From an uncultured bacterium (GTDB lineage Bacteria; Auribacterota; Erginobacteria; Erginobacterales; DAOSXE01): 40,104 nt of DNA. Below, piece after piece: positions 17,364 through 35,755 of this stretch. The DNA lies in assembly GCA_964538495.1 (NCBI GenBank), contig CAZIEA010000003.1, positions 1-40,104 of the forward strand, in the 5' to 3' direction. The translations under genes and the position numbers were made by a program. Each line of letters begins with the position of its first letter. Position 1 is the stretch's first letter. The notes beneath the pieces are model-generated. The model searched no databases, was not told the DNA's origin, and saw only the letters and a program-made list of their open reading frames with translations.

Positions 17364-18431
17364 ATGAAGCCGCCGCCCTTTTGCAACCTGGCCCGCCGGG
17401 CGATCGGGGCCCGCTTCGGGACTCCTTCCGCCCCTTTCAAGCTGACCTGGGCGGTGACCTGGCGCTGCAACAGCCGCTGCGCTTCCTGCCGGATCTGGCA
17501 GCGTTCGCCGGGTCCGGAGCTGCCGGTCTCGGATTTCGAGGAAGTTTTTCGAAAAACCCCCTCCCTGGCCTGGATTGACTTGACCGGGGGAGAGCCGACC
17601 CTGCGCGAGGATCTCGCCGAAATCGGCCGGGCGGCGGTTTCCCTCCTGCCCGGGCTCGACCTCCTGCACTTTCCCACCAACGGGCTCCTGCCCGCGCGGC
17701 TGGCGTCGGCGGTGCAGGACATTCTCCGGGCCCGCCCCCGCAAACTCGTGGTCACGGTGAGTCTGGACGGCCCGGAAGCGGTCCACGACCGGCTCCGGGG
17801 CGGGGAGGGTTTTTTCGCCCGTTCGCTCGAGTCCCTGCGCCGGCTCAAAGCTTTGGAATCCCGGCATTTCCGGGTTTTCCCCGGGATGACGCTCTCGGCG
17901 GAGAATTTTCACTTGGTGGGGGAGACTGCCCGGATGCTGGAGAGGGAACTGGAGGGATTCGCCCCGGCCGATCTTCACGTTAACATCGGCGAGATCTCCG
18001 AGCATTTTTACGGGAACGCCGGCTTCGACCTTTCCTTCCGCCCGGTCGCCCTGGAGGAAGTCCGGCGCCACTCCGCCCGGGGGGGCTTCGCCCGGCGCCT
18101 GAGCCCGGCCGGGCTCCTGGAGCGGGCCTATCTCCGGCTGGCCGAAAAATACCTGGCATTGGGGAAGACCCCGATCCCCTGCCGCTCCGGTTCGGTCTCC
18201 TGCTTCATTGATCCCGCCGGGGAGATCTACCCCTGCGCCGTGGAGCCGGAGCGATTGGGAAATATCCGCGAGTACGGATACGACTTGAGGAAAGCCTGGA
18301 AGTCGGAAAAGTTCGCCAGGGCCCGGGCGAGGATTTCCCGCGGCGACTGCCCCCAGTGCTGGACCCCCTGCGAGGCTTACCAGACCTTGCTCTCCGATTT
18401 CCCCGTTCTGCTCTCCCGGGGCCTCTTCTGA
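17364..18431 (+). CDS. radical SAM enzyme with SPASM-type cluster, paralog of 4607-5689
   Basis: CxxxCxxC motif (WRCNSRCASCRIW), then GGEPTL and SLDGPEAVHDRLRG. C-terminal PCRSGSVSCFIDPAGEIYPC...GDCPQCWTPCE. Same length class (355 vs 360 aa) and collinear motifs with 4607-5689. Confidence 0.85.
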   Translation: MKPPPFCNLARRAIGARFGTPSAPFKLTWAVTWRCNSRCASCRIWQRSPGPELPVSDFEEVFRKTPSLAWIDLTGGEPTLREDLAEIGRAAVSLLPGLDLLHFPTNGLLPARLASAVQDILRARPRKLVVTVSLDGPEAVHDRLRGGEGFFARSLESLRRLKALESRHFRVFPGMTLSAENFHLVGETARMLERELEGFAPADLHVNIGEISEHFYGNAGFDLSFRPVALEEVRRHSARGGFARRLSPAGLLERAYLRLAEKYLALGKTPIPCRSGSVSCFIDPAGEIYPCAVEPERLGNIREYGYDLRKAWKSEKFARARARISRGDCPQCWTPCEAYQTLLSDFPVLLSRGLF

Positions 18432-18455: not shown

Positions 18456-18566
18456 AAATTCGAAATTCGAATGACGAAACTCGAATGAAATTCGAAGTCC
18501 GAATGAAGAAATTCGAAACCACTGAGAAGAGTATGTTCCGAGTTTCTGATTTCGAGTTTCGAATTT
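18456..18566. repeat. array of TTCGAA palindromes with 7/14-nt spacing, plus an 11-bp inverted repeat
   Basis: Perfect TTCGAA at 18459, 18466, 18491, 18512 and 18558. One-mismatch variants at 18480, 18498 and 18551. AAATTCGAAAC (18509-18519) is the reverse complement of GTTTCGAATTT (18556-18566). Confidence 0.8.
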
Positions 18567-18573
18567 ATTGGGT

Positions 18574-18639
18574 CTCCTGACTCCTGACTCCTGTTTCCTG
18601 GGTTTTGCCGGATTACGGATCACTGATTACTGATTACGG
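18574..18639 (+). repeat. mosaic-element modules F (CTCCTGA heptads) and E' (GATTACG/GATCACT heptads) upstream of 18675 start
   Basis: CTCCTGA CTCCTGA CTCCTGT TTCCTGG (18574-18601), then gttttgcc, then GGATTACGGATCACTGATTACTGATTACGG (18610-18639), then TTTT and ccagaacc. Same order and orientation as 35903-36000. Confidence 0.8.
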
Positions 18640-18674
18640 TTTTCCAGAACCATTCGTACGGGTCGGGATAGATT

Positions 18675-20216
18675 ATGGGTGCGAGAAAAAGAAAGGCCGG
18701 ACCGGCGCTGTACTTCTGTCTTCTCTTCGCCGTCCTGGGCGTTGTCTACGGTCCGACCTTCCGGTACCCGCCCCGGAGCGACTATTGGTCGGCTTTTTAC
18801 GTTTTCCAGAAGGCCGACGCGGCTGGGCCGATGGGTTGGACTGAGATCCTGGCCTTCGACCTCTGGGGACACGGGACTTACCGGCCCCTCTCGCACCTGG
18901 TGCCGTATTTGCAGCACCGGCTCTTCAGCCCCGATTTCGTCTGGAACCACATCCTCAATTTCGCCTTCTATGGTCTGAGCATCGTCCTGCTTTACCTATT
19001 AGCGGCTAAGCTAGGTCTGGACCGGGTGGTGACCGCGCTCTTCCTGACTGTGTTCGCCTTTCTCTTCTCCCACTTCGACATTCTGGGCTGGAGTTTCCAG
19101 CTTTTCAGTATTCTGGGGTTCTGTTCCTTTCTGTTCGGCTTCATCCTCTACCTGGGCTGGCTGGAATCGGGCCGGAAGGGCATCTTGCCAATCGTGGGAG
19201 GGTTGTTCATTTTCGGGATGCTTCTTTCCGAGGCCTACGCCCTCTGGCCCCTGGCCGTCCTCATTCTTCCCTGGGCCCTCCCCGGCCGGGTTCCCCGCCG
19301 CGGGAAAGCGACCGGATTGCTCCTGGGCGCGGTTTACCTGCTTTACCTGGGGGGATTCGTCCTGCACCGCGCCGCCGCCGTCACCACCGGCGAGCTTCCC
19401 GCCCCTATCCTCGGGCAGATGATGGCCGGGATCTTCGCGAGTTTTTTCAACCTCCTTTACAACGGAATTTTGGTCAACGCCTATCCCCCGCTGGCCCTGC
19501 CGCTCTACTACGACGACAATATGAACCTGGGAGGGGCGCTGCTCAAGATGGGGTCGAACCTGGAGGGGACGGCGTTCTGGTCCGGGGTGGGGGTTTTCGT
19601 CCTGCTCGGCCTGGGGTTTTGGCTCCTGGCCCGGGAGCGGAAAACCCGTGCTCTCGGGTTGTTGGGTTTTGTGCTTTTTCTTTACCTGGCAAATTTCACC
19701 ACCGTGACCGTTGCCCGCCTGACCACCAACCTTGCCCTTTATCCGCTCTCGCAGTTCCGCTACCAGTATGTCCCCAACGCCCTGCTGGGGCTGCTTCTGG
19801 CGGCGGTTTTCGGGGGACTCCGGCCCGGGAAAAGGGGGAAGCTGGTCCTGGGGCTGGTTCTGGCCCCGGTTTTAGCCTTGAACATAGCTGTTTCCCATCG
19901 CCAGGTCGTTTACTTGGGGCAAAGACTTGCTCCGCTGGGAGCGATGCTGGTGAATATCCGCCAGGAGATGGAGGAAGGCCGGATAAGCGGGGAGCGGCCG
20001 CTCTACATCGGCCCGGGCGTGGAAAGGCTGATCCCCTCTCCGGGCTGGAACCGGAGCATGGCCCGGTTCATGAAGGGGAACTTTCAGTGGTTCTTTCCCG
20101 CCTCCGAGCAGGGAAAGTTCACCCTCGACCCTGATGCGGCTTCCTGGGTCGTGACTCCGGAGAGCTTTCCCGCGATCCGGGAAAAGGCGACGCCGCTATC
20201 CCCGAATTCGAACTAA
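18675..20216 (+). CDS. polytopic membrane protein, TMTC/PMT_2-like GT-C candidate (no TPR domain)
   Basis: 513 aa with about 11 or more hydrophobic helices. N-terminal loop PPRSDYWSAFY...WGHGTYRPLSHLVPYLQHRLF...VWNHILNFAFYG shows the YRPL...H..N pattern seen in TMTC/PMT_2-type proteins. Paralog of 24020-25714; both end in PNSN*. Confidence 0.55.
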   Translation: MGARKRKAGPALYFCLLFAVLGVVYGPTFRYPPRSDYWSAFYVFQKADAAGPMGWTEILAFDLWGHGTYRPLSHLVPYLQHRLFSPDFVWNHILNFAFYGLSIVLLYLLAAKLGLDRVVTALFLTVFAFLFSHFDILGWSFQLFSILGFCSFLFGFILYLGWLESGRKGILPIVGGLFIFGMLLSEAYALWPLAVLILPWALPGRVPRRGKATGLLLGAVYLLYLGGFVLHRAAAVTTGELPAPILGQMMAGIFASFFNLLYNGILVNAYPPLALPLYYDDNMNLGGALLKMGSNLEGTAFWSGVGVFVLLGLGFWLLARERKTRALGLLGFVLFLYLANFTTVTVARLTTNLALYPLSQFRYQYVPNALLGLLLAAVFGGLRPGKRGKLVLGLVLAPVLALNIAVSHRQVVYLGQRLAPLGAMLVNIRQEMEEGRISGERPLYIGPGVERLIPSPGWNRSMARFMKGNFQWFFPASEQGKFTLDPDAASWVVTPESFPAIREKATPLSPNSN

Positions 20217-20268
20217 AATTTTGCAGATTTGTTCTTGCGCCACGGCGCCAAGATCGCAAAGGCTTTTA

Positions 20269-20362
20269 CTCTATGCTCTATGCTCTATGCCCTCTGCTCT
20301 ATGCTGAAGCATGTCCACAGATTTCACAGATTTTAACTTCATGTTCTTCATGGTGATAAAAG
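20269..20362 (+). repeat. CTCTATG heptad run followed by A/B modules of the mosaic element
   Basis: CTCTATG x3, CCCTCTG, CTCTATG (20269-20303). Then GTCCACAGATTTCACAGATTTTAACTTCATGTTCTTCATGGTGATAAAAG (20313-20362). Confidence 0.85.
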
Positions 20363-20459
20363 CGGCGGGCCAATCCTCATACCGCATGCTTCACGACGTT
20401 TTCACAGAGAAATCAGATTCAATCAGGCGAAAGATTTGCGCATCCCGAAACCTGATTTT

Positions 20460-20512
20460 TCAGTTGAAGAGGGCCAGCTCGGCCAGGGAGTAGAAATTGT
20501 AGCGGCTGCCGT
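20460..20512 (-). pseudogene. relic 3' end of a third discoidin-domain gene
   Basis: The reverse strand reads ..LNGSRYNFYSLAELALFN*. By my hand alignment about 80% of nucleotides match the 3' end of 23139-23735 (..DGSRYNFYSLAELALFK*). There is no upstream coding body, and the fragment abuts the stop of the TPR ORF at 20513. Confidence 0.6.
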
Positions 20513-21013
20513 TCAGTTTATATAACCCAAAGCTTTCAATTGTTTTATTGTTTCTCGGCTGGGTGTAAAACTTTTCGTATAATCATTTTCATAGAATGCC
20601 AGAAAACTTTCAGTTTCACTGCGAACTTTTTCAGCGAGTGTGCGCATATCGCTCAAGATATCATTCCTGAGGAAAAGATTATTTTGCTCCTTCTTGTCTT
20701 TATCGTTGTCAAAAAGAGACATATCTTCATATTCCCAGCGCCAGGAAGGACGGAGCGCTACCGCTTTGCGGCCCATATCCGCGGCTTTCGCAGGATTTCC
20801 TTCTTTATGGTAAAGATATGATAGCTCAACATATACTTGGGATTCGTCTGCCCCCAATCTCAAAGCCTTGTAAAAAGTCTGTTCGGCGTCTGAAAACCTA
20901 TTGGTTTCACGATAAAGCCGCCCCCACGCTATCTGCAATTCTCCATTGTCCGGGTCAATGGTCTCGGCTTTCCGGTAGATTGTTTTCGCCTGATCGTACT
21001 TTTTGCTTCGCAA
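20513..21013 (-). CDS. TPR-repeat ORF, most likely the frameshifted C-terminal part of the sulfatase-TPR gene 21067-23067
   Basis: The TPR repeat continues upstream of the listed start in the same frame (..TYRKLIASDPNNSLGYLLLGNTYLRSKKYDQAKTIYRKAETIDPDN). It ends ..LKALGYIN*, resembling ..LRSLGYL* at the end of sulfatase paralog 25896-27797. Confidence 0.7.
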   Translation of the reverse strand: MRSKKYDQAKTIYRKAETIDPDNGELQIAWGRLYRETNRFSDAEQTFYKALRLGADESQVYVELSYLYHKEGNPAKAADMGRKAVALRPSWRWEYEDMSLFDNDKDKKEQNNLFLRNDILSDMRTLAEKVRSETESFLAFYENDYTKSFTPSRETIKQLKALGYIN

Positions 21014-21066
21014 ATAGGTATTTCCCAGGAGCAGGTATCCCAGACTGTTGTTCGGATCGGAAGCAA

Positions 21067-23067
21067 TCAGTTTTCTGTAAGTTTTTTTTCTTCGTCTATC
21101 TGCTCGTGTTTTTCGTAGTAATTTCCCAGCGCTTGATAAAGCCAGGTTTGAGCGGGATCCAACTTTAATAAATCATGACCCGTTTGTATCGCATTTTCGA
21201 TCATCCCGAGAGTCCGGCAAACAGTTGTGTACTCTTTAAAGATCCAAATGGCGCCCGGGTTTTTCTTTAAGATCTCTTTATACTCGCTGATCGACAGTTC
21301 ATACTCCCTTTGCTCCTTATAAAGTCTAGCCAGGGCAACATGATAGTCGATTTGGGCGGAAGCCAGCTCGGCGGCTTTCTTGTAAGCCGATTCCGCTTCC
21401 TGGTATTTCTCCTGAAGTTCATAAATCCTTCCCTCTTCAAAGTATGCCCGGGGGTCGCAAGGTTCCAGGCGTTGGGCATCTTTCAGGATTTTTAACGCTT
21501 TCTCGAATTGATTAAGTTCAATTGAACAGCGCCCCCATTCGAGGAATGCAAGGTAGCTCTCGGGGTCGATTTCCAGCGCTTTGGCCAGCAGAAGCTCGGC
21601 TTCCGGGGTGCGATTTAACTCTCGGCAACAGGCTGCCATTTGTACGTATATCCAGGTATCTGTCTGTGAGAAAAACAAGGCTTGTTTATACATCTCAAAA
21701 GCATTTCCGAAATCGTCTATTCTGAAACATGAATTACCAGTGGAAATATAACCCAAGGAGGCGGCATTTGCGGTGGTTGCTCCTGGTTGTACAAAAGCCT
21801 CAACGGCTCCAGTTTCTTCCGCTTGGGAAAAATCAAGCAAAGCATCAGTGGGATCATTGTGGTCAATAAATGTATAGTCGTCGTTATGTATTCTCAGCGA
21901 GTAAGTTTTGATAACCTCGTGATGGGATTTTGTCCCGTAGCTGGCTATGATCGGCTTATAAATTCCCCGCTTTGTCAGTAAGGGGAGAAACGAAATTCCC
22001 TGAACCGGTCGTTCGAGGGGAATATTAAGCCATTCGAGAACCGTCGGCATGACATCCATTGTCCGTACAGATTCCTCTATCACCATGCCTGCAAACTTGC
22101 CGCCGGGAAACTTGACTATCAAGGGAACCTGGACGTGCTCAATCCATAAAAATCCGTGCAGCTTTCCGCCGTGTTCGTTGAATTCCTCCCCGTGATCGGA
22201 AAGAAGTATGATCATGGAATCGTCGTATATATCTTCTTCTTTCAGGATCTCGACCAGTTTTTTGAAAACGTAGTCGGAATAAAACACGCCGCCTTCATAG
22301 AGGGAGACAATATATTGAAGGTGGGCGGGATCATCCAGGTTGATTCCTTGCCAAAACGATTCCGAGGAAATATTTTTCCAATGTCCATTTGCCGGATCGG
22401 CCGGCAAAGGCAACCCTATTACGCCTTTTTCGAGGAAATGGGTCCGAATCTCGCTCGGCCCCTTCAAGTAAGGATCATGGCAGAGGTAATGATGAAGAAA
22501 AAGAAAGAGCGGGAGTCCTTTTTCTCGACAATCCCGAAGTCGTTTTTTGATGCGCCCGGTCACCATGTCGAGTTGGTCAGGACGTGCTCCCAAGTTTTCC
22601 CAATTGCCGAATAGCGGCAAATATTCATCGAAGCCACGACTGAACCCCAATTCGCCGGCAACTTGGCCGCCGCCGTGAAACCCGACATTTAAATACCCGG
22701 CTTTTTTTAGCACCTGGGGCAGGGTCGTAATATTTTCGCCAAGAATATGGTTAATGCCTTCAGGGGAAATATTATTAACCCTGTGAACTGGAGAAGACAA
22801 AGAAGTAAAAATCGACATATGGGCAGGGGTGGTGATAGGTGCTTGACTGAAAGCCTTGGCGAATAAAACGGAGTCATTTGCAAATTCGTCGATGGATGGC
22901 GATGTTTTTTTTCGGTATCCATAGCGGCTTAAAAAATCGGCGCGCAGAGTGTCGATCGAGAACAGAATGATATTCGGCCGCTTAGGCGCCGAGGAAGCGC
23001 CCGGAAGATCCTTGGCTTCAGCCCCGGACAACGAGTATAAAACAAACAAAATTAAGATATATTTCAT
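21067..23067 (-). CDS. secreted sulfatase-fold (alkaline-phosphatase superfamily) protein fused to TPR repeats; Thr at nucleophile position
   Basis: Signal peptide MKYILILFVLYSLSGAEA. PNIILFSIDTLRADFL, APITTPAHMSIFTS and LLSDHGEEFNEHGG motifs. The C-terminal half is TPR-like. Markedly AT-richer than its neighbours. Confidence 0.85.
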   Translation of the reverse strand: MKYILILFVLYSLSGAEAKDLPGASSAPKRPNIILFSIDTLRADFLSRYGYRKKTSPSIDEFANDSVLFAKAFSQAPITTPAHMSIFTSLSSPVHRVNNISPEGINHILGENITTLPQVLKKAGYLNVGFHGGGQVAGELGFSRGFDEYLPLFGNWENLGARPDQLDMVTGRIKKRLRDCREKGLPLFLFLHHYLCHDPYLKGPSEIRTHFLEKGVIGLPLPADPANGHWKNISSESFWQGINLDDPAHLQYIVSLYEGGVFYSDYVFKKLVEILKEEDIYDDSMIILLSDHGEEFNEHGGKLHGFLWIEHVQVPLIVKFPGGKFAGMVIEESVRTMDVMPTVLEWLNIPLERPVQGISFLPLLTKRGIYKPIIASYGTKSHHEVIKTYSLRIHNDDYTFIDHNDPTDALLDFSQAEETGAVEAFVQPGATTANAASLGYISTGNSCFRIDDFGNAFEMYKQALFFSQTDTWIYVQMAACCRELNRTPEAELLLAKALEIDPESYLAFLEWGRCSIELNQFEKALKILKDAQRLEPCDPRAYFEEGRIYELQEKYQEAESAYKKAAELASAQIDYHVALARLYKEQREYELSISEYKEILKKNPGAIWIFKEYTTVCRTLGMIENAIQTGHDLLKLDPAQTWLYQALGNYYEKHEQIDEEKKLTEN
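21082..21089 (-). other. A8 (T8 on + strand) homopolymer at the frame break between 21067-23067 and 20513-21013
   Basis: The coding strand reads GAA GAA AAA AAA CTT ACA GAA AAC TGA. One extra A, or a -1 slip, gives ..EEKK TYRKLIASDPNN.. continuing into the downstream TPR ORF. Confidence 0.7.
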
Positions 23068-23138
23068 TGATAAACCTGTTTTTGATAAGAATCAGGAGGC
23101 AGCCGCTGCCGGTTATTAGGGGATGTAAAAAATAATTA

Positions 23139-23735
23139 TCATTTGAACAACGCGAGTTCGGCCAGGGAGTAGAAGTTGTAGCGGCTTCCGTCCTCGTGTC
23201 CTTTGAGGATTGTCAGGCGCCAGTAACGGAAAGCGCGGTCGTTGGCGAAGTCCCACTTCCACCAAACGGCCTTGCCCGGGGTTTCCCTCAGGACGATATC
23301 AGCCACCTTTTCCCAGGACTCCCCATCGTCGCTTCCGGCGAGCTCGGCTTGGCGCAGGAACTGCCGGGGCAGGTCGGCCCGGGGGAGGGCGGCCAGGGCC
23401 CGCACCGTTTGTTTTTTCCCCTCTCCGAAATCCACGGCCACCCAGGCGAGCTTGCCCACCTCATCGAGCTCGATGTGCCAGAAGGAGTTGGGGTTGCCGT
23501 CGTTGAGTTTGGCCGCGGATTCGTTGGCGGAATTTTGGGAAGAAGCGGAGAGGATGGCCTCCGGTTGCCTGAGCAAATTCGCGCCAGCGTCGAGATCCGG
23601 GACTGTCCGCGCCTCCAGGCCGGAAAGCCCGATCCCGAAAAGATCGAGCCGGGTCGCCACCTGGACGACGATGGCGGCGAAGATGAGCAGGATGATTCCC
23701 AGGGCTATTTTTTCCGCGCGGCTGAACTTTTCCAT
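23139..23735 (-). CDS. single-pass membrane-anchored discoidin (F5/8 type C-like) domain protein, 198 aa
   Basis: SD AAGGAGG lies 6 nt before the ATG at 23735. N-terminal TM (IALGIILLIFAAIVVQV). Domain motifs NDGNPNSFWH, VAVDFGEGKKQTVRAL, GSDDGESW, FRYWRL, SLAELALFK*. Collinear and gap-free with 27814-28410. Confidence 0.8.
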   Translation of the reverse strand: MEKFSRAEKIALGIILLIFAAIVVQVATRLDLFGIGLSGLEARTVPDLDAGANLLRQPEAILSASSQNSANESAAKLNDGNPNSFWHIELDEVGKLAWVAVDFGEGKKQTVRALAALPRADLPRQFLRQAELAGSDDGESWEKVADIVLRETPGKAVWWKWDFANDRAFRYWRLTILKGHEDGSRYNFYSLAELALFK

Positions 23736-23753
23736 TTCACACCTCCTTTTCTC

Positions 23754-23989
23754 GCATAGAGCATAGGGCAAAGGGCATAGAGTTTAAAAAACAGAATACA
23801 GGAGTCAGGAGTCGGAAAAAAATCGTAATCCGTGATCAGTGATCCGTAATCCGTCGAAACCCGGGATACAGGAAACAGGATTCAGAAGGCATAGGAATCC
23901 AGAATACAGAATCCAGAATTCAGAATGCGCAAGAATCCGTAAAATCTGTGAAATCTGTGGATAAGAAATAATCTGCGAAATCTGCGTAA
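23754..23989 (-). repeat. mosaic-element modules in reverse-complement orientation (sense relative to the - strand genes)
   Basis: The + strand shows CATAGAG-type heptads (23754-23782), ACAGAATACAGGAGTCAGGAGTCGG (23791-23815) and A7. Then CGTAATCCGTGATCAGTGATCCGTAATCCG (23824-23853) and GGGATACAGGAAACAGGATTCAG (23863-23885). Then GAATCCA/GAATACA heptads (23894-23929), AAAATCTGTGAAATCTGTGG (module A rc, within 23936-23966) and AATCTGCGAAATCTGCG (23970-23986). Confidence 0.85.
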
Positions 23990-24019
23990 TCTTAGTTTTG
24001 TAGTTCAAGCCGCGAAATC

Positions 24020-25714
24020 TCAGTTCGAATTCGGGCAATTCGTAGACAGCGGTTGGAGGCGGAGATCGCAAGTATCCACCGTCCAGGCGGCTTCCCCGGG
24101 GCTGAAGGCGAAACTCCCGATCTGCTCCGGGGGGAAGAGCCACTGGTAAGTCCCCTGCATATAGGGGGCCAGGTTCACGTTCCAGCAGAGGTGGGGGAGG
24201 CTCTCCGGCAGCGAATCGTCCAGGTAAAGCCGGTTTTCCGGACCGACTCGCCCGTCGGCGATTCCCGTTTTGATGTTGGAGATCAAAGTTCCCAGGGGCG
24301 CCATCTGGCGGTTCACTTTCTTCAGGTGGGCGTTCAGGACCAGGAGGTTCAGGGCCAGGACTATGCCCAGTAGCGCATAAACCCAGAGCCGAAGCCGGGG
24401 GAAAGCCTTGAGCAGCCGGTCGGCCCCCAGGATGCCGAGCAGGGCGAGCAGGGCGTTGGGGACATACTGATACCTGAACTCGAGCAGGACATAAACCGGG
24501 AGGTTGGTGGCCATCCGCCCGTGGTAGAGGGCGAAGGTCCCGCTCAGGAGCAGGTAAAGAACGAAAATAAAAGGCAGTGGTTTATTGGGCAGGCGCTTCT
24601 TCCGGAGCAGCGCCACCCCGGCGATTCCCAGCAGGATGAGCAGGCACCCGGCAATTCCCAGGACACGGTTTATCCCGGTTTCGGTTTCCCACCAGAGAGT
24701 GTCCAGGTCGGCCCCCTTGCTGATGGAAAGAGGGGGTTCCGCCAGGGAAGGGGGCTTCCCGTGCCGCTGGCGGGCTAGCGCCTCCCGCAGGACGGGGCTG
24801 GCCTGGATCAGGATCCCGCCCCGGCTGATGTTGTCGCGGATGATTCCCGGGGAGAAAAGGAGAGGGTCCAGGTTGGAGACTATCCCGTTGATGAATAGCC
24901 CGGAAGCGGTGACGGCGAGACTGTAAGAAAGGGAGGAAGGGGAGAGGAAGTCGGGCGGCGTCCCCGACAATCCCTCGACGGGCGCGCGGGTCCGGGTGAA
25001 AGAGAGGATGCCGGCATAAAGAGCGTATAAGCCGGCCAGGGTGAGGGCGGTGGAGCGGAGCGCGGTCCTGAACCGGGGAATCGGCCAGACCTCCTTTCGG
25101 CAGAAGAGGAGGATGAAGACGGCGGGTGGCCAGGGGATGAAGGTCTCGTAGCAGAGTATTCCCGCCAGGAAGGCCGCGGCTGTCCCCAGCAGAATCGGAA
25201 GTCGTCTAGTTCGAATGTATGACAGGTAGGCCAGGAAACCGAGCAGGAGAAGACAGAACCCGGCGATGAGTCCGATATGGAAGGTCCAGGTCACGATGTC
25301 GAAATGAGAGAAGAGCAGGGCGAAGACGGCCAGCCCCGCCAGGATAATCCCGCGCCCGGCCCCCAGCGCCCTGCCCAAACGGTAGAGCAGGAAGATACCC
25401 AGGCAGTAAAAGCCGAAGTTGGCCGCGTGGAACCAGAAGTAGTCCGCCCCGAAGAGAAGGTGCATCCAGTAGAGCGGGACGTGGAAAAGCGGTCGGTAGG
25501 TGCCGTGGGCGCAGACGTCGTAGTTGACTACCGCCAGTGTTCGCTCGAGAGCGGGGAGTTCCCGGTAGGAGTGGAAGTGGTAGAGCAGGGCCCACCAGTC
25601 GCTCCGGGGCGGGTTGGAAAAGCCGGGCAGGAAGACCGCCAGCAGCGCCACGAACAGGACCAGGAACCCCCCGGATGTCTTTGTCCTCTTCACGCTATTC
25701 ACATCGCAATTCAC
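24020..25714 (-). CDS. polytopic membrane protein, TMTC/PMT_2-like GT-C candidate, paralog of 18675-20216
   Basis: NPPRSDWWALLYHF...CAHGTYRPLFHVPLYWMHLLF...WFHAANFGFYC is collinear with 18675-20216, and it ends ..CPNSN*. The start is uncertain: GTG at 25714, or GTG at 25693 giving MKRTKTSGGFLVLF. The first codons lie within a 12-nt tandem repeat (ATGTGAATTGCG ATGTGAATAGCG). Confidence 0.55.
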   Translation of the reverse strand: MNCDVNSVKRTKTSGGFLVLFVALLAVFLPGFSNPPRSDWWALLYHFHSYRELPALERTLAVVNYDVCAHGTYRPLFHVPLYWMHLLFGADYFWFHAANFGFYCLGIFLLYRLGRALGAGRGIILAGLAVFALLFSHFDIVTWTFHIGLIAGFCLLLLGFLAYLSYIRTRRLPILLGTAAAFLAGILCYETFIPWPPAVFILLFCRKEVWPIPRFRTALRSTALTLAGLYALYAGILSFTRTRAPVEGLSGTPPDFLSPSSLSYSLAVTASGLFINGIVSNLDPLLFSPGIIRDNISRGGILIQASPVLREALARQRHGKPPSLAEPPLSISKGADLDTLWWETETGINRVLGIAGCLLILLGIAGVALLRKKRLPNKPLPFIFVLYLLLSGTFALYHGRMATNLPVYVLLEFRYQYVPNALLALLGILGADRLLKAFPRLRLWVYALLGIVLALNLLVLNAHLKKVNRQMAPLGTLISNIKTGIADGRVGPENRLYLDDSLPESLPHLCWNVNLAPYMQGTYQWLFPPEQIGSFAFSPGEAAWTVDTCDLRLQPLSTNCPNSN

Positions 25715-25737
25715 ATGTAGACATGTAGGACATGTAG
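25713..25737. repeat. ACATGTAG tandem words at the 5' edge of 24020-25714
   Basis: ACATGTAG ACATGTAG GACATGTAG. A related CACATGTAAGCATGT occurs at 38717-38731. Confidence 0.7.
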
Positions 25738-25784
25738 AAATTTCTTTTTTTACGCAGAGCTCCCGCAGGGGGCGAAGCCCAGGG

Positions 25785-25876
25785 ATTGAACTACGAATTA
25801 CGCGAATTTCGCGAATTCAGGTAACGGATTACTGATCACTGATTACGGACTACCGGTTTTTCCTGAACCCTGACCC
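25785..25876 (+). repeat. mosaic-element modules D-E'-T5-G, oriented antisense to the flanking - strand genes
   Basis: ATTGAACTACGAATTACGCGAATTTCGCGAATTC (25785-25818). CGGATTACTGATCACTGATTACGG (25825-25848). TTTTT, then CCTGAACCCTGACCC (25862-25876). Confidence 0.8.
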
Positions 25877-25895
25877 ATTGCGTTCCCCTGTGCTG

Positions 25896-27797
25896 TTAGA
25901 GATAGCCCAGGGAACGCAGGCCGTCTTTCCTCTTCTGGTATTCGTTGTCGGCTGGGGAAGATGCTTTATCCGCTTCTAGGGCACCGGCCGGGTCGAAGCG
26001 GATGAGATGGACAAAGAGCGCCCCGGCGGCGGAATGGGCCTGCAGCTCGAACGCGAAGCGGTTTTCCTTTACGGCCACCTCTCCCCAGTCGAGGTGGAAG
26101 ATGTTCGCTTCCTGCCAGGGTATTGTCGAAAAGGGATCGTGGAATGGCTCTTGTGGGGAGAACCGGCCCTGGAGGCCGATTTTGCCCGGGAGGGTCTTGC
26201 GCGAAGGGTCCAGGACTTCGACCAGGGCCGAGACCCGGTAAGTTCCGTCCGGGAGCGCGGCCGAGAGTTGGAGCGGAGCGGCGGTTTCCCAGTCCGGGAA
26301 GTAAAAAAGCCCGCTTTGGTGGTCGGAGTTGTTGACGACCCAGGGTTTCCGGGGGGAGATTGTCTTCAGGATCGTCTTGGGATCGTGAGTTATGTCCGCG
26401 GACTCGAAGGCATTCTCGGGGGCGAATTCGAATTCTTTGAGCGGAAGGTAGAAAGAGTAATCAGGCGGAGCCGACTTCCGGGCGGCCCGGTAACGCTCCC
26501 GGAAAGGTCTCAGGAAGCGCCGGAGCCTTGAATCCATCCGCTTTTTCAATTCCGGTCGCCGCCGGGCGATGTCGAGAATTTCGCCTGGGTCCCGGGCGAG
26601 ATTGAAGAGCAGGGACCCATCCTCGTCGTAGATGAATTTATATCCTTCGGTGCGGATGGACTCTTGCGTGTAAACCGTCTTCTTGCCTTGTCCGGGGTTT
26701 TCGAGGAAGGGGCGGAGGCTTATCCCATCGAAGGTCTTGCCCGCTGGGACTTTCAATCCGCCGAGGTCGGCGATGGTGGGGAGGAGGTCTATGAGCTCGA
26801 CCAGGCCCTCGACCCTGGTCCCGGCGGGGATCTTTTCCGGCCAGACCAGGATCAGGGGGATATGGATGCCGCTGTCAAAGGCCTGGCCTCCGTGGTTGAG
26901 GTGGTTGTGCTCGCCCAGGTGTTCGGCGTGGTCGGCGGTGACGATGAAAAGGGTGTTCTCGGCCAGCTTGTGCTTTTCCAGGTGGGAGTAAAGTTTCCCG
27001 ATCCGGGCGTCGGTATGGCGGAGGTTGCCGTCGTAAATGGCGCGCAGAACCTCGATTTCCCGCTCGCTCCAGCCCTCGCAAGACTCGTTGGGCTTGGCCT
27101 CGAACTTGGTCCGGACCGCCGCCGCCTCCAGCAGCCTTCGGGCCGCCCCCAGCCCCTTCCCTCCGAGAAATACCAAGTCGTCCTCCTTGGGCGGGTAGGG
27201 CTGGTGGGGGGACATCATGTGCAGGTAAAGGAAGAAAGGGCGGGTCCGTTCGCGGCCGATCCACCTGATCGCTTCCTGGACCAGGGCGTCGTCGGTGGGC
27301 TGGGTAGCGCGGACGTGGAAGTTTTGCTCGAAACTCGCGACGAAGTCGGTTTGGGGCATGAACCACCAGTGGTCGTGGACGATCGCGGTCAGGTAGCCGT
27401 TGTTTTTGAGCAGTTCGGGCAGGAATATTTGCTCTTGGTCGAAATCCTGGAAAATGGCCGCCGCGCTCTCCCGGCGCAGTTCCCAGCGCCAGGTGTCTTT
27501 AGGGAAGATCTCCTTGGAGAAGTAGCGGGAGCTCATGATTAGGGGCATCGACTCGTGGGTCTGCATTCCGGGGGCGAAGGCATTGAGGAAAACTGCGCCC
27601 TGAGCGGCGATCTTGTCGATGGCGGGGGTGGTGGGCTTGGGGTAGCCGTAGCAGCCGAAATGGTCGGCCCGGGCCGCGTCCAGGAGGACGAAGACGATGT
27701 TGGGCGGCCGCGTCGGGGGCCCGCTTGCTGCTTCATCCCCGGCGCGGGCGGTCGCGGCGGCCAGAAGCGTCGTCATGATTGCCGGGAAGCATTTCAC
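25896..27797 (-). CDS. secreted sulfatase-fold (alkaline-phosphatase superfamily) protein with about 200-aa C-terminal beta-rich extension; Thr at nucleophile position
   Basis: Signal peptide (M)KCFPAIMTTLLAAATARAG. PNIVFVLLDAARADHFGCYGY, APGMQTHESMPLIMSS and VTADHAEHLGEHNHLNHGG motifs. GTG start with AGGGGA about 10 nt upstream. Ends LRSLGYL*. Confidence 0.8.
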   Translation of the reverse strand: MKCFPAIMTTLLAAATARAGDEAASGPPTRPPNIVFVLLDAARADHFGCYGYPKPTTPAIDKIAAQGAVFLNAFAPGMQTHESMPLIMSSRYFSKEIFPKDTWRWELRRESAAAIFQDFDQEQIFLPELLKNNGYLTAIVHDHWWFMPQTDFVASFEQNFHVRATQPTDDALVQEAIRWIGRERTRPFFLYLHMMSPHQPYPPKEDDLVFLGGKGLGAARRLLEAAAVRTKFEAKPNESCEGWSEREIEVLRAIYDGNLRHTDARIGKLYSHLEKHKLAENTLFIVTADHAEHLGEHNHLNHGGQAFDSGIHIPLILVWPEKIPAGTRVEGLVELIDLLPTIADLGGLKVPAGKTFDGISLRPFLENPGQGKKTVYTQESIRTEGYKFIYDEDGSLLFNLARDPGEILDIARRRPELKKRMDSRLRRFLRPFRERYRAARKSAPPDYSFYLPLKEFEFAPENAFESADITHDPKTILKTISPRKPWVVNNSDHQSGLFYFPDWETAAPLQLSAALPDGTYRVSALVEVLDPSRKTLPGKIGLQGRFSPQEPFHDPFSTIPWQEANIFHLDWGEVAVKENRFAFELQAHSAAGALFVHLIRFDPAGALEADKASSPADNEYQKRKDGLRSLGYL

Positions 27798-27813
27798 GGT
27801 TAGTTTTTCCCCT

Positions 27814-28410
27814 TTACTCGAAGAGGGCGAGTTCCGCCATGGAGAGAAAGTTGTAGCGGACCCCGTCTTCGTGGCCGTTGATGATGCGCAGACGCCAGAA
27901 GCGGTAGGCCCGGTCGTTGGCGAAATCCCACTTCCGCCAATTGGCTTTTTCCGGGACGTCCCGCAGGACGATAACGGCTACGGGCTGCCAGGATGATCCG
28001 TCCTCGCTCCCGGATAATTCGGCCTGACGCAGGAACTGCCGGGGAATGTCGGCCCGGGGCCGGGCCGCCAGGGCGCGGATGGTTTTTGTTTCCTCCGGCC
28101 CGAAGTCCACCGTCAGGGAGGCCGGCTTGCCGATCTCGGCGACCGCCACGTGCCAGAATGTGTCGGGGTTATTGTCGGTCAGCCGATCCACGGCTTCATT
28201 TTCCTGGTTGTGGGAGGAGGCGGTCAGGGATGGGTCGTCCCGTTTCAGGAGATTGGCCTGGGTATCCAGTTCCGTGAATTCTTGCGGGATGACGCCGGGA
28301 AGTCCGAGATTGAACAATTCGAAGCGGGTTGTCACCTGGATGACGACGATGACCAGGATCAGGAGGATGAGGCCCAAGGCGATTTTTTCCATCCGGCTGA
28401 GATCTTTCAT
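27814..28410 (-). CDS. single-pass membrane-anchored discoidin (F5/8 type C-like) domain protein, 198 aa, paralog of 23139-23735
   Basis: SD AAGGAGG before the ATG at 28410. That ATG overlaps the TGA of the upstream YfhO gene (ATGA, 28407-28410). TM helix IALGLILLILVIVVIQV. Motifs TDNNPDTFWH, LTVDFGPEETKTIRAL, GSEDGSSW, YRFWRL, SMAELALFE*. Confidence 0.8.
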   Translation of the reverse strand: MKDLSRMEKIALGLILLILVIVVIQVTTRFELFNLGLPGVIPQEFTELDTQANLLKRDDPSLTASSHNQENEAVDRLTDNNPDTFWHVAVAEIGKPASLTVDFGPEETKTIRALAARPRADIPRQFLRQAELSGSEDGSSWQPVAVIVLRDVPEKANWRKWDFANDRAYRFWRLRIINGHEDGVRYNFLSMAELALFE

Positions 28411-30956
28411 TTTGCCTCCTTGGCGCACGATGTTTGGTGAAGACATTTCCAGCCCACCCGGCCCAGGCCGACCAGGAGCAAGAGGGCCCAGGAGAGGCCG
28501 GTGACCGTTAACCCGATCCGCCAGGCCCGGGGATGGAAGACGAGTTCCACCCGGTGCTCTCCCCGGGGGAGAACGATTCCCCGCTGCAAGTAATTTACCC
28601 GGTGGAGTTCAGCGGGTTGCCCGTCCATTTGCGCCTTCCAGCCGGGATACCAGGCCTCGGTCAGAACCAGCATGGCGGGGCGGAAAATCTCCACCTCGAT
28701 TTCCACCCGGTTGGGATCGCTGAAATCGAGGCGGGTGACCGGGCTGTCGGCCTGAATCGCCGCGAAACGGGCATAGTCCTTGTCCGGCTCGGAAGGGGGA
28801 AGGGACGCGTAATTCGTGATCCGTAATCCGTGATCCGTAACCGCCGTCGGAAGGGGTTCCTCGATGAATACGGCTCGTCGGAGGTCGCCCTGGGTCAGTT
28901 CCCGCGAAGCCTCCTCTTCGGAGCAGAGGACGATCCGGTCCAGGGCGAACGCTCGGGGCAGGGGCCGGGGGTTCCGGTGCAGGTAGAAACCGGCCTCCGA
29001 CCCCAGGGGAATTGTCTCCCCGCCGGGGAAGAGATTTTCGCTCCGGGAATCGAGCAGGGTTTCAACCGACATGTTGCTTAAAAAAGCGCCCGACTCCGGC
29101 CGGGGAAAATCCCAGTAGATCGGCCAGTCCGGGACCGTCCCATAGGCGTCGGCAAAGGCGCGGCGGAAACGCCGCTCCAGCGGCTTCATGTCGTAGCCCA
29201 TGAAAGCGAAGCTCCCCTCCAGGCGGGCGAAGTTGTCGTGGAAAGGCTGGTCGGTGGCCCAGCGCAGCGTAGGGTCTTCCCGGAAAGCGGCCAGCGAATG
29301 CACAACCCGCTCGATCATGGGGTGGGTGGAGGGGCTGCGGCTGCGGCGTTGCTGGGGCTTAGGTTCGTCAAAGCGGAAGATGCAGAAGTAGAAGGCGGCC
29401 CAGGCCAGGATGAAGGTTTCCAGCATCACCAGAGCCGCGGCGGCCGCGGCTCGTTCCCGGCCGCGGAAAATCCTCCAGACCGCGGCCAGGCAGAAGGCCG
29501 CTCCCAGGAAGTAGAGGACCGGCCCGCCCAGGAACCAATCCAGGGCGTCCCGGCGGAGGATCTCCTCCAGGCCGGGCAGGTAAAGACGGCCTCTCAGCAA
29601 AGCCTTGACCCCTTCCTTGCCGGCCAGGGCGGCCGGAAAGGTCAGGGCCGCTAAAGCCAGGTAACCCCAGACCAGCTTCCGGGGCCAGCCATCCGTGGCC
29701 TTGTCCCCGGCCAGGAGATACTCCGTGCCGAGCCCGGCCAGAATCGCGGCGGCGACTACTTGGAGCAGGCGGTAGCGGATGGGGAAAGGAAACAGAGAAA
29801 GCCCGGGGACGATTTCATAAAATATCCGATAAAACGGCGTATGCCTACCCAGGACGCAGAGGATGGAGAAGACCCAGATCCCTGCCGCGAAAATCGCCCA
29901 GAAGCGCAGCCGCCCTGGCCGGAGACGGTTGCGGACGAGAAAAACTCCCCCCAGCGCCAGGAAGGTAAGCAGCAGCCCCCCGCTCAGGTTGGCGTCCCAG
30001 AACCGGACTCCCTGGGTGACGGATTCCACCCAGTTGCGGCTGTTGAAACCGTTTACCGTGCCGAAAAGGTCGGGGACAAACAGGGTGGCGAGATAGAGCG
30101 GCGGGGCGCTTCCATCCGCTCCGGTCATGCCTTCGTAGGTCCTAGGCAGATGCTGCTCGGCATGAGTGTCGCCTTCAAGAGCGGAAAGCCAGAATACGGC
30201 CGAAAGCGCCAGCCCCAGGAGCGTTGCCAGCGCCAGTCCCAGGGGCGCCCGGAAGAAGAGCGCTTTCCGCCCGCGGCTTAAGCGGCGTAGTCCCAACCCC
30301 AGGGCCAGGAATCCGCTCAAGAGCATGCTGTAGCCGACGTGGGGAGGTTGAGCGGCGAACAGCATCAGGGCAATGATGATTCCCCCGCCGGCGATTTTCC
30401 CCCAGGTCAACCCGCGGTCCAGCGCGACCACGATGAGCAGCAGCCAGGGCAGCCAGGCCTGGACGTGCACCACCACCGACCAGACGTAGGAGTAGGAGAA
30501 AGCCGGGCTGAAGAGATAGACCCAGGCGGTGACGAAGGCGCTCAGCGGCCGCAGGCGGATTCCCCGGCGGGCGAAAAAATACATCCCGATCGCGGCCAGG
30601 CAGTAATGAAGCAGGAGCGGGATCGTGCTGATCATCAGGCAGGACTGATCGAGATCGTCGAGCCGGCTGAGCAGGTAGAAAGGCCAGTAGGGAAAATACC
30701 AGGTGTCGGCGTAGTAGCGGGCGTAGAAAGGGATGGCCCCGCACCAGGTGTCGGGTTCCCAACGGGGGACGATCCCGTTCTGGATGTGCCGGGCCAGGAA
30801 AAAATGCCAGGGGAATTCCGCCATGGCCAGGTCGTCGTGAAATATCCCGGACCGCCCGACCAGGACGGGCAGAAAAAGTACCAGAACCGCGAGGACCAGG
30901 AGAATGAGGGCCCCGGCGTCCGCCCGTTTCCGGGTTTGTTTTTTGCTGTTACGCAT
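28407..30956 (-). CDS. YfhO-family polytopic membrane protein (GT-C glycosyltransferase-like)
   Basis: 849 aa and polytopic. C-terminal block PAMLVLTEAWYPGWKAQMDGQPAELHRVNYLQRGIVLPRGEHRVELVFHP, then a terminal TM. Confidence 0.75.
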   Translation of the reverse strand: MRNSKKQTRKRADAGALILLVLAVLVLFLPVLVGRSGIFHDDLAMAEFPWHFFLARHIQNGIVPRWEPDTWCGAIPFYARYYADTWYFPYWPFYLLSRLDDLDQSCLMISTIPLLLHYCLAAIGMYFFARRGIRLRPLSAFVTAWVYLFSPAFSYSYVWSVVVHVQAWLPWLLLIVVALDRGLTWGKIAGGGIIIALMLFAAQPPHVGYSMLLSGFLALGLGLRRLSRGRKALFFRAPLGLALATLLGLALSAVFWLSALEGDTHAEQHLPRTYEGMTGADGSAPPLYLATLFVPDLFGTVNGFNSRNWVESVTQGVRFWDANLSGGLLLTFLALGGVFLVRNRLRPGRLRFWAIFAAGIWVFSILCVLGRHTPFYRIFYEIVPGLSLFPFPIRYRLLQVVAAAILAGLGTEYLLAGDKATDGWPRKLVWGYLALAALTFPAALAGKEGVKALLRGRLYLPGLEEILRRDALDWFLGGPVLYFLGAAFCLAAVWRIFRGRERAAAAAALVMLETFILAWAAFYFCIFRFDEPKPQQRRSRSPSTHPMIERVVHSLAAFREDPTLRWATDQPFHDNFARLEGSFAFMGYDMKPLERRFRRAFADAYGTVPDWPIYWDFPRPESGAFLSNMSVETLLDSRSENLFPGGETIPLGSEAGFYLHRNPRPLPRAFALDRIVLCSEEEASRELTQGDLRRAVFIEEPLPTAVTDHGLRITNYASLPPSEPDKDYARFAAIQADSPVTRLDFSDPNRVEIEVEIFRPAMLVLTEAWYPGWKAQMDGQPAELHRVNYLQRGIVLPRGEHRVELVFHPRAWRIGLTVTGLSWALLLLVGLGRVGWKCLHQTSCAKEAK
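28808..28842. repeat. five-unit heptad block of the intergenic E' word family embedded inside the YfhO coding sequence
   Basis: The + strand reads CGTAATT CGTGATC CGTAATC CGTGATC CGTAACC. The 14-mer CGTAATCCGTGATC is identical to 23824-23837. On the coding strand it encodes ..AVTDHGLRITNYA.. in a region that does not align with the paralog 31203-33659. Confidence 0.8.
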
Positions 30957-31105
30957 TGCCGGTTGCTGGGTCGTAGCGCAGGGCGTCAGCCCTGATTAAA
31001 AATCTTACCACGGATTCAGCCGCCGGTCGCCGCCGGTTTTGCTGGCCCTTCACAAACGGATTAGCCAAAATAACCTTGTCCGCGGATTTCCCGGATTCGC
31101 TTTTT

Positions 31106-31188
31106 GTGGACGATATGGACGATGTGGACTGAGTGGACCGGAGAAGCCCTGAGGCGCTCGCGTCCTGAACCCTGAATCCTGAACCCTG
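31106..31188 (+). repeat. 9-nt (GTGGACGAT-type) and 7-nt (CCTGAAC) tandem words in the divergent YfhO/YfhO spacer
   Basis: GTGGACGAT ATGGACGAT GTGGACTGA GTGGACCGG (31106-31141). CCTGAAC CCTGAAT CCTGAAC CCTGC (31164-31188), ending 14 nt before the ATG at 31203. Confidence 0.8.
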
Positions 31189-31202
31189 CTATTTCGACTT
31201 CG

Positions 31203-35715: not shown

Positions 35716-35755
35716 GCGTCGAACCCGATCCGCGGATTAAGCCGCCCGCCAGTTT

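Follow-up and report, generated by a model that had tools for sequence, protein, structure and literature searches.

A discoidin module appears to link membrane glycosyltransferases and Thr-type sulfatase-fold enzymes in a candidate polysaccharide-tailoring locus of an uncultivated Auribacterota bacterium

We analysed a 40,104-nt stretch of contig CAZIEA010000003.1 (GenBank assembly GCA_964538495.1), hereafter the window, from an uncultivated bacterium of the Auribacterota. Two consecutive runs of minus-strand genes in the window bring together membrane glycosyltransferases (GTs) of the GT-C type, small membrane-anchored discoidin proteins and secreted sulfatase-fold enzymes with a threonine (Thr) at the nucleophile position. 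Sequence comparisons support a functional link between these three families, because the discoidin module is fused elsewhere to GT-C, sulfatase-like and SGNH-tetratricopeptide repeat (TPR) enzymes. All three face the outside of the cytoplasm, the GT-C proteins being polytopic, the discoidin proteins anchored by a transmembrane (TM) helix and the sulfatase-fold enzymes exported by a signal peptide. We give even odds to a reading in which this region serves the periplasmic tailoring of an exported polysaccharide, within a large locus that also has Wza/Wzc/BBP2 export genes, and in which discoidin is a common substrate-targeting or tethering module. This reading draws on sequences, structural models and gene neighbourhoods, and the organism is uncultivated. 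Related loci are designated below by L numbers and related database proteins by P numbers.

The two discoidin proteins, each of 198 aa and encoded on the minus strand (discoidin 1, 27814-28410; discoidin 2, 23139-23735), consist of a single N-terminal TM helix (residues 10-28) followed by an F5/8-type-C domain (Pfam F5_F8_type_C, PF00754; E 3.7e-12 and 8.3e-15, or 46.9 and 55.5 bits against a cut-off of 28.2). They are 59% identical, and their PDB sequence matches are weak, to the lectin domains of galactose oxidase and sialidase. A preliminary description of the window, made from the letters alone, had reported the equal length and gap-free alignment of the pair, which we find as well, and had made its case depend on the small proteins being discoidin-like domains, for which both have significant Pfam matches; its Sulfatase and YfhO labels were likewise borne out by profile searches. 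The ATG of discoidin 1 overlaps the stop codon of the preceding YfhO-like gene (ATGA at 28407-28410, in the sequence aaggagg-N5-ATGA), so that the two genes are translationally coupled, and a 16-nt spacer follows before the GTG start (27797) of the sulfatase-fold gene; both junctions are as first described. No discoidin 1 ortholog was found at the corresponding junction in L016, L022 or L025, and a discoidin gene in this place is peculiar to the window. Discoidin 2 shares 60-63% identity with the discoidin gene found directly behind the GT-C gene in L016 and L024, and is orthologous to the one discoidin gene that the nearest relatives have. A 3'-end relic of a further copy (20460-20512, minus strand) reads GSRYNFYSLAELALFN* and, as had been proposed, matches the 3' end of 23139-23735 (84% DNA identity, 15/16 in protein).

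A fourth discoidin-type domain (12597-13094, plus strand) forms the C-terminal 165 aa of an SGNH/GDSL-TPR protein (10965-13097). Pfam at E<=1e-3 did not detect it; it was recognized by tblastn (E 5e-18) and hhalign (probability 99.2%, E 7.5e-20), and it ends in ...EIALFE, as do the small discoidin proteins. With this fusion, the discoidin module is not specific to the discoidin and sulfatase-fold pair that the preliminary description had called constant. The same arrangement, SGNH-TPR-discoidin, occurs in L011, P0163, P0165, P0174 and P0175. Fusions to the sulfatase-fold enzyme also exist: P0039 (789 aa) carries a lipoprotein signal (lipobox), a discoidin domain and a homologue of the sulfatase-fold enzyme of the first cassette (sulf1) in one uninterrupted sequence, and P0180 has a sulf1-like domain followed by discoidin, behind an N-terminal TM segment. 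Polytopic proteins of L005 (9509-11965), L015 (740-3091) and L022 (11919-13784) bear the module at their C-terminus, and in P0121 a PMT_2 protein is joined directly to a Thr-type sulfatase-like domain.

At larger scale, an exhaustive HMMER search of 1.84 billion representative proteins returned 184 discoidin relatives at E<=1e-10. Among the best 77 of these 184, 31 are polytopic with the discoidin domain mostly at the very C-terminus, 4 are SGNH-TPR-discoidin (GDSL-TPR-discoidin) proteins, 2 are sulfatase-like-discoidin proteins, 4 are TM-anchored stand-alone proteins like those of the window, 9 are short (<=230 aa) without a TM segment and possibly fragments, and 27 are multi-discoidin or other proteins. 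Thirty of the polytopic proteins were scanned with Pfam, giving matches to F5_F8_type_C in 29, to PMT_2 in 9 and to YfhO in 2; one discoidin-bearing polytopic relative has a weak CBM_AftD match. Searches with the discoidin protein had yielded a single non-self cluster (word index) and a single genome locus, but 10 metagenome loci. The possibility that the family is near-unique was dropped, since the metagenome scan and the HMMER search show it mostly as a domain of larger proteins; judged by these sequences, the stand-alone proteins are an uncommon 'split' variety of a module otherwise built into periplasmic glycan-active enzymes.

Genes of the related loci were identified from their BLASTP matches to the window proteins and from Pfam matches. 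Twelve distinct loci were counted including the window (L016, L006 and L017 being one organism, and L007/L008 one row), from organisms with GC 0.45-0.67; the independent genomes are few and phylogenetically clustered. Seven of the 12 contain all three families and another 4 contain two of them, with varying order and number. The trio therefore recurs in other genomes, as the preliminary description had expected, but the fixed repeated triad it proposed does not: the nearest relative (L016/L006) has a lone discoidin gene, which does not lie between its YfhO and sulfatase-like genes.

The window itself reads YfhO1 (the YfhO-like gene at 28407-30956), discoidin, sulf1, a member of a new GT-C family (see below), discoidin and a broken sulfatase-TPR gene, faced by a second new GT-C gene. 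Its nearest relative, L016 (= L006 = L017; GC 0.63), has YfhO1, sulf1, new GT-C, discoidin, a 1103-aa YfhO-like gene and a sulfatase-TPR gene of native GC (842 aa), again faced by a new GT-C gene, and L007/L008 has YfhO1, new GT-C, a polytopic sulfatase-like gene, discoidin and a YfhO-like gene with the same facing GT-C gene. L022 (GC 0.49) reads YfhO2, YfhO1, two sulf1 genes, the polytopic protein with C-terminal discoidin and new GT-C; L005 (GC 0.50) reads SGNH-TPR, sulf1, two discoidin genes, PaaX, PMT_2 with C-terminal discoidin and a YfhO-like gene; in L010 (GC 0.45), two new GT-C genes accompany, at some distance, a sulfatase-TPR gene on the opposite strand and two discoidin genes; and L021 has a discoidin-sulf1 fusion, discoidin and PMT_2. 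These seven contain all three families. L024 has two new GT-C genes, a discoidin gene and, further on, new GT-C, discoidin and a YfhO-like gene, with no sulfatase-like gene seen in 19 kb. L025 (YfhO2, YfhO1, sulf1, a sulfatase-like gene, new GT-C) has no discoidin gene, and neither does L018, which is syntenic with the left half of the window and contains YfhO, sulf1 and sulfatase-TPR genes. L020 has sulf1, discoidin and an EEP phosphoesterase with no GT-C gene seen; a 1117-aa protein of this locus was considered as a YfhO-like GT-C and rejected, having no TM segments and no similarity. L023 contributes a sulf1-like gene alone, within a Wzx/Wzy/Bac_transf cluster. The most conserved adjacencies are YfhO1 followed by sulf1, and new GT-C followed by discoidin (window, L016 and L024); a sulfatase-like gene precedes discoidin in L005, L020 and L007. 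Discoidin genes in related loci also adjoin a PIN/FitA toxin-antitoxin pair, a GIY-YIG nuclease gene and a Mu-type transposase gene (L024 8991-9622 and 12821-13108; L012 2548-4053), which suggests that discoidin-bearing loci are recombination hot spots.

The sulfatase-fold enzyme of the first cassette (sulf1; 633 aa, 25896-27797, minus strand) has a GTG start and matches Pfam Sulfatase (PF00884) at E 2.8e-50. SGSH_C matches accompany those to Sulfatase, and both this enzyme and the second sulfatase-fold protein of the window have a cleavable signal peptide and no TM segment. Its AlphaFold2 (AF2) model (pLDDT 92) retrieves only S1 sulfatases or phosphonate monoester hydrolase (PMH) among the top 50 Foldseek matches (E ~1e-24, target TM-score 0.6-0.7), and S1 (carbohydrate) sulfatases and PMH are its closest structures. 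The model has an additional C-terminal beta-sandwich domain that matches no Pfam family and takes no name from the whole-protein fold search, whose matches follow mainly from the catalytic domain. At the extreme C-terminus of Thr-type proteins we observed a motif, L-x-x-L-G-Y, whose G and Y are kept in >=90% of 69 sequences (for example in 25896-27797, ...LRSLGYL; in 20513-21013, ...LKALGYIN; and in P0121 and P0039), whether a beta-sandwich or TPRs precede it; it is probably a last structural element that packs back onto the catalytic domain.

Consistent with the 'Thr-type' label given to them before, the proteins place a Thr at the formylglycine position of 4upi, and of 121 aligned homologues 117 have Thr as the residue at the nucleophile position. 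The sulfatase signature PS00523 (C/S-x-P/A-x-R...TG) is absent from both window proteins by regular expression, with SulfAtlas-updated as well as old PROSITE patterns, and was present in only 3 of 120 homologues; PS00149 (G-Y-x-T-...-G-K-x-H) is absent from both as well, G-Y-x-T being retained and the K and H positions variable. Across the family alignment D33 and T73 are each conserved in 68/69 sequences and H191, D282 and H283 in 69/69, with H186, E285, E289, H290 and H295 as further conserved residues; H295 takes the position of the sulfate-binding Lys after the DHG motif, and is His in 62/69. The Thr, an acidic residue and the Asp-His metal ligands of LtaS, EptA and GacH are thus all present, an equivalence drawn from motif position and not from superposition, and weak NCBIfam matches to EptA/MCR/LtaS cover the N-terminal and DHG regions. 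The N-terminal polytopic membrane domain of LtaS, EptA and GacH is missing from the window proteins. At least 376 database proteins are Thr-type homologues, annotated at source as arylsulfatases, of the arylsulfatase A-like kind. Sulfatases require formylglycine, and the Thr nucleophiles of this superfamily, such as those of EptA and NPP, act on phosphoesters; by this analogy the Thr-type enzymes probably handle phosphate groups and not sulfate. According to SulfAtlas, a PF00884 protein with such a Thr does not count as a functional sulfatase (PMC5066984), and GacH and LtaS, with Thr nucleophiles, act on phosphoesters (10.1101/337519). The sulfo-group option of the preliminary description is accordingly unlikely, both S1 sulfatase signatures being absent. 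We are less sure of the specific 'phospho' chemistry than of a functional link among the three families.

Two kinds of GT-C protein accompany these genes. YfhO1 (849 aa, 28407-30956, minus strand) is a YfhO-like membrane glycosyltransferase with about 12 TM segments, one at 811-829, whose Pfam YfhO match (PF09586, 33.5 bits against a cut-off of 28.5) covers residues 732-819 only, in the C-terminal part. Its orthologs in L016, L022, L025 and L018 are 52-60% identical, and in the first three the ortholog's stop codon overlaps the start of the sulfatase-like gene. The second kind is represented by 24020-25714 (564 aa, minus strand) and its paralog 18675-20216 (513 aa, plus strand, 34% identical), which is convergent with the minus-strand run and keeps its position and orientation in L016 and L007. 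The preliminary description had called both TMTC-like. Their paralogy stands, whereas the TMTC (GT105) label was rejected: there is no profile-recognizable PMT_2/DUF1736-type domain and there are no TPRs. Eight members scanned gave no Pfam match even at E<=10, there was no PDB sequence match, and TPRs were found in only one distant relative (P0036). Searching 5.8e9 proteins retrieved 34 clusters of relatives, all unnamed or 'hypothetical' and all from metagenome-assembled genomes (MAGs) of the PVC group or of Ca. Erginobacter (Auribacterota). By hhalign, the family aligned to the window's YfhO and PMT_2 families with 45% and 0.5% probability, respectively. Structure prediction with subsequent fold search, not profiles, settled the fold: an AF2 model of 24020-25714 from 34 sequences (pLDDT 87.6, pTM 0.90) had GT-C proteins at Foldseek ranks 1-15 without exception (STT3, Pmt4, Pmt1/2, PglB, ArnT and ALG6; probability 0.96-1.00). 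A PPRSD motif lies directly after TM1, as expected for a GT-C catalytic loop, with D39 kept in >=90% of the 34 sequences and D66 invariant. This model and its fold matches support the assignment of 24020-25714 and 18675-20216 to a new putative GT-C family, one that has no Pfam model and is not TMTC.

The second cassette has a different history. All other open reading frames (ORFs) lie where the preliminary description had put them, but 20513-23067 (minus strand), read there as one sulfatase-fold-TPR gene, is frameshifted. A stop at 21067-21069 splits it into ORFs 21067-23067 (Sulfatase PF00884, E 7.1e-35) and 20513-21013, and its intact homologues (842 and 853 aa; 842-853 aa in L016, L006 and L010) align to one frame until about residue 654 and to another beyond. 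The frames switch in an A8 run (21082-21089), where one added A gives ...EEKKTYRKLIASDPNN..., matching the homologues; the run may be an assembly error, mark a pseudogene or be a phase-variable tract in a surface-glycan gene. The gene is also compositionally foreign, with GC 0.41-0.52 and GC at third codon positions (GC3) of 0.44-0.50 against GC3 of 0.77-0.81 in its neighbours. The low-GC stretch starts directly after the stop codon of 23139-23735 and ends at the sulfatase-TPR gene's own stop. Direct repeats of 56 bp from the discoidin 3' end (20457-20512 and 23136-23191, 84% identical) bracket this 2.6-kb segment (20513-23135) exactly, so it looks like a single-crossover insertion of a foreign piece that carried its own discoidin 3' end. 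At the corresponding place L016 has the 1103-aa YfhO-like gene and then its native sulfatase-TPR gene. As to its origin, the gene is closer to the copy of high-GC L016 (54% identical), its best homologue, than to that of low-GC L010 (45%). Given this composition, and an identity of only 27% to the cassette-1 enzyme, cassette 2 is not a duplicate of cassette 1; on sequence grounds it is best described as a remodelled arrangement containing a foreign, currently broken gene.

The window as a whole is one large glycan locus. It contains a PMT_2 GT-C gene (1531-3603) overlapped by a GT2 gene (3579-4610), and encodes three YfhO-like proteins: YfhO1, one that matches the N-terminal core of the family (7183-9513), and an 818-aa paralog (31203-33659, plus strand) that is divergent from, and 32% identical to, YfhO1 and whose orthologs adjoin the YfhO1 ortholog in L016, L022 and L025. 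A second GT2 enzyme (16654-17352, plus strand), 72% identical to its L018 ortholog, resembles polyprenyl-phosphate-hexose synthases in NCBIfam (AglJ, E 3.4e-38; Dol-P-hexose transferase, E 4.5e-19; PpgS, E 8.7e-12; all below curated cut-offs), and by this resemblance is the likely maker of a lipid-linked sugar donor for the GT-C enzymes. Further genes encode radical-SAM/SPASM enzymes (4607-5689 and 17364-18431), B12-binding radical-SAM enzymes (5696-7186 and 13209-14633), an MBOAT protein (9504-10952) adjoining the SGNH/GDSL-TPR gene, an HddA-like sugar kinase of the heptose-type GHMP kind (15454-16428) and, at 34525-38687 on the plus strand, a polysaccharide export set of BBP2_2 outer-membrane barrel, Wza-like Poly_export/SLBB and Wzc-like Wzz/GNVR/P-loop proteins. 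A secreted ankyrin-repeat protein with a signal peptide (14646-15305, plus strand) sits in the middle of the glycan locus.

Short tandem arrays take up most intergenic regions of the window, each with 3-5 copies of a unit that is 7 nt, or in some cases 9 nt, long (18456-18639, 20269-20333, 23754-23992, 25713-25859, 31107-31188, 35759-36001 and 38735-39036), the units differing between arrays (for example CGGATTA, CTCTATG, GAATCCA and CCTGAAC); similar arrays occur in the nearest relative, L016 (20316-20351 and 20765-20789). An Rfam scan of the window gave no matches, so these repeat-rich regions are not recognized RNAs, and promoter and terminator counts in 20200-31250 equal the shuffle level. 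Heptamer and nonamer arrays also build inverted repeats between the flanks of 18675-20216 and the spacer that separates 24020-25714 from 23139-23735 (18574-18643 with 23819-23888, 20314-20335 with 23940-23961, and 20267-20305 with 23760-23798), reaching 70 nt at 84% and 22 nt at 100% identity. It is possible that these repeats around the GT-C genes are substrates for inversion or recombination.

Following the tailoring reading, the GT2 enzymes of the locus would make polyprenyl-phosphate sugar donors, from which the GT-C enzymes, working on the outside of the inner membrane, would put side-chain sugars on the polymer. The Thr-type enzymes would transfer phosphoryl groups by way of a phospho-Thr intermediate and so attach or take off a substituent in phosphodiester linkage, for example glycerol-phosphate or phosphoethanolamine. 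The discoidin module would recognize the exported polymer and tether or orient its partner enzymes at the membrane, and it would give the soluble sulfatase-like enzyme a membrane anchor of the kind that LtaS, EptA and GacH have within their own chains, at the very surface where a lipid donor would be found. Other members of the family have tethers of their own (a polytopic N-terminal domain in the L007 protein, 419-2482; the lipobox of P0039; the TM segment of P0180), which fits a soluble window enzyme in need of a TM-anchored discoidin partner. More tentatively, we propose that discoidin could be a common 'address tag' recruiting GT-C enzymes, SGNH acyl-transferases/esterases and the soluble Thr-type S1-fold clade to one polymer, and that this clade could be a new class of phosphotransferases or phosphodiesterases that act on glycans in the periplasm and are anchored there through discoidin; of this stronger version we are far from persuaded.

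Several observations weigh against the tailoring reading. The trio is not obligate: discoidin is missing from L025 and L018, the sulfatase-like gene from L024 and GT-C from L020, and L023 has the sulfatase-like gene alone. The second sulfatase-like gene of the window is broken, leaving at most one complete cassette. The catalytic domain of 25896-27797 is nearer to true S1 sulfatases than to LtaS or EptA, the TM-scores behind the GT-C matches of 24020-25714 are modest (0.31-0.41), and the middle of P0121 is of low complexity, so that this fusion may be an artefact of assembly or gene calling. Carbohydrate binding by the discoidin domains is assumed from their family membership and their fusion to glycan-active enzymes. 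No phospho-donor pathway was identifiable in the window, and no GtrA/GtcA-type flippase was noticed among the ORFs inspected there, for which no dedicated search was made.

An alternative view is that there is no functional triad at all, only independent genes of a paralog-rich, recombination-prone glycan locus that are neighbours merely by belonging to it, with the discoidins as free-standing surface lectins or adhesins. Order and copy number do vary among relatives, each family can be missing, the loci contain toxin-antitoxin, GIY-YIG and transposase genes, and cassette 2 was remodelled by inserted foreign DNA. We nevertheless find this view doubtful, given the independent fusions of one discoidin subfamily to three enzyme classes, the ATGA start/stop overlap between YfhO1 and discoidin 1 and the recurrent adjacency of discoidin with preceding GT-C or sulfatase-like genes. 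The cooperating extracytoplasmic machine of the preliminary description survives in this looser form, as linked families with pairwise fusions on record rather than as a fixed unit. The structural matches of the new GT-C family raise a further option, a protein O- or N-glycosylation system whose GT-C enzymes modify secreted or envelope proteins, with discoidin and sulfatase-like proteins as accessory factors or even as substrates: the best of these matches are protein glycosyltransferases (STT3, Pmt4, Pmt1/2 and PglB), the first loop of the family has a TMTC-like HGTYRP motif, and 28407-30956 faintly matches PgfM1/PgfM2, which glycosylate adhesins. ArnT and ALG6 score similarly in Foldseek, however, so that the fold gives no clue to the type of acceptor, and the PgfM matches are far under cut-off (15 bits against 1400-1500). 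With a complete polysaccharide export set (Wza, Wzc and BBP2) plus MBOAT and SGNH genes in the locus, and sulf1-like genes inside the Wzx/Wzy/Bac_transf cluster of L023, we regard protein glycosylation as unlikely.

Two other explanations concern the sulfatase-fold proteins. They could be catabolic hydrolases that desulfate or dephosphorylate environmental glycans, with the discoidins as their carbohydrate-binding modules; their fold is nearest to carbohydrate sulfatases, their homologues carry an arylsulfatase A-like annotation, and discoidin domains of the CBM32 type are common on glycan-degrading enzymes. A MAG study of the Auribacterota likewise tallies signal-peptide 'sulfatases' as degradative, catabolic features (PMC9324843). 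Both formylglycine signatures are missing from the window proteins, which have Thr instead of Cys or Ser (compare PMC5066984), no glycoside hydrolase or uptake genes lie nearby and the neighbours are biosynthetic, which together make this reading improbable. The last possibility, that the Thr is oxidized to a keto residue, analogous to formylglycine, by the radical-SAM/SPASM proteins of the locus to yield a new kind of sulfatase, strikes us as far-fetched. Two such genes are present in the window, the L018 ortholog of 4607-5689 (8799-9935) lies directly upstream of a sulf1-like gene (10001-11914), and P0059 (1091 aa) fuses a radical-SAM domain to a sulf1-like one, although of the B12-binding type and not SPASM. 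Neither SPASM protein is an anaerobic sulfatase maturase by NCBIfam (the best matches, TIGR04053, AhbD and MftC, are far under cut-off), the sulfatase-fold proteins lack the motif that maturases recognize (C/S-x-P-x-R) and have other residues in place of the sulfate-binding Lys, and most related loci have no SPASM gene nearby.

Thr-type proteins are routinely annotated as sulfatases and given that meaning in ecological interpretation. If they are glycan phosphotransferases or phosphodiesterases, sulfatase counts from metagenomes of PVC-group and other uncultivated bacteria are inflated, and the catabolic reading of Auribacterota 'sulfatases' (PMC9324843) would need revision if those proteins belong to the Thr-type clade. 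Periplasmic polysaccharide tailoring would offer a functional context for three unstudied groups (the Pfam-less GT-C family, the discoidin subfamily and the Thr-type S1-fold clade) and, if true, would define a new phospho-decoration route for Gram-negative polysaccharides. A lectin subunit common to several tailoring enzymes would, if real, also be a useful principle for glyco-engineering.

Where the preliminary description could name no described system of this composition, we find similar logic in GacI/J/K/L with GacH, in CsbB/GtcA/YfhO with LtaS, and in AftD. Among phospho-enzymes, LtaS, EptA/MCR, OpgB/OpgE and BcsG are periplasmic phospho-substituent transferases of the alkaline-phosphatase superfamily with N-terminal polytopic domains. 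The window enzymes resemble them in their Thr (or Ser) nucleophile and in a metal site of Asp/Glu and Asp-His, and their DH(G/A)E-LGE-x-...-H motif is like that of EptA/MCR; they differ in having only signal peptides, and in sequence and fold they are nearer to S1 sulfatases and phosphonate monoester hydrolases. With S1 sulfatases (SulfAtlas, PMC5066984) they share the two-subdomain fold, the PF00884 and SGSH_C matches and the PH-x-P and DH motifs, but not C/S-x-P/A-x-R or G-K-x-H, and they are set apart by the Thr nucleophile, the His in place of Lys and the biosynthetic context.

A close parallel in overall design is the streptococcal group A carbohydrate, in which GacH, a sulfatase-fold enzyme with a Thr nucleophile, transfers glycerol-phosphate onto GlcNAc installed by a GT-C enzyme (10.1101/337519). 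In GacI/GacJ/GacK/GacL with GacH (10.1101/337519, 10.1101/180810), as the genes alone suggest for the window, a side-chain sugar is put in place by a polyprenyl-phosphate-sugar synthase together with a GT-C that works outside the cytoplasm, where a metal-dependent Thr-nucleophile sulfatase-fold enzyme then adds a phospho-substituent, all of them encoded within one polysaccharide locus. GacH, however, has 11 TM helices and an LtaS-type domain, whereas the window enzymes are soluble and S1-like with a beta-sandwich or TPR domain; Gac has no lectin-type subunit, its GT-C families differ, and it is Gram-positive, whereas the window locus has outer-membrane export genes. The CsbB/GtcA/YfhO and GtrA/B/C systems (PMC5836110, PMC8035078, PMC11127046) pair a GT-C enzyme (YfhO family) with GT2 polyprenyl-phosphate-sugar synthases, as the window may do, and CsbB/GtcA/YfhO decorates its polymer, lipoteichoic acid, after export across the membrane; the window differs in its several GT-C paralogs and new GT-C family, and the described systems are without discoidin and sulfatase-fold partners. 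The mycobacterial AftD (10.1101/2019.12.22.885152) and EmbC carry a periplasmic lectin-type beta-sandwich on the GT-C itself to hold the glycan acceptor, whereas the window module is a separate TM-anchored protein whose family is also found on sulfatase-fold and SGNH-TPR enzymes. What would set the window apart from all of these is a soluble S1-like phospho-enzyme, one new GT-C family and a separate anchored lectin module common to three enzyme classes, in a host that differs as well, an outer-membrane-bearing, uncultivated PVC-group bacterium.

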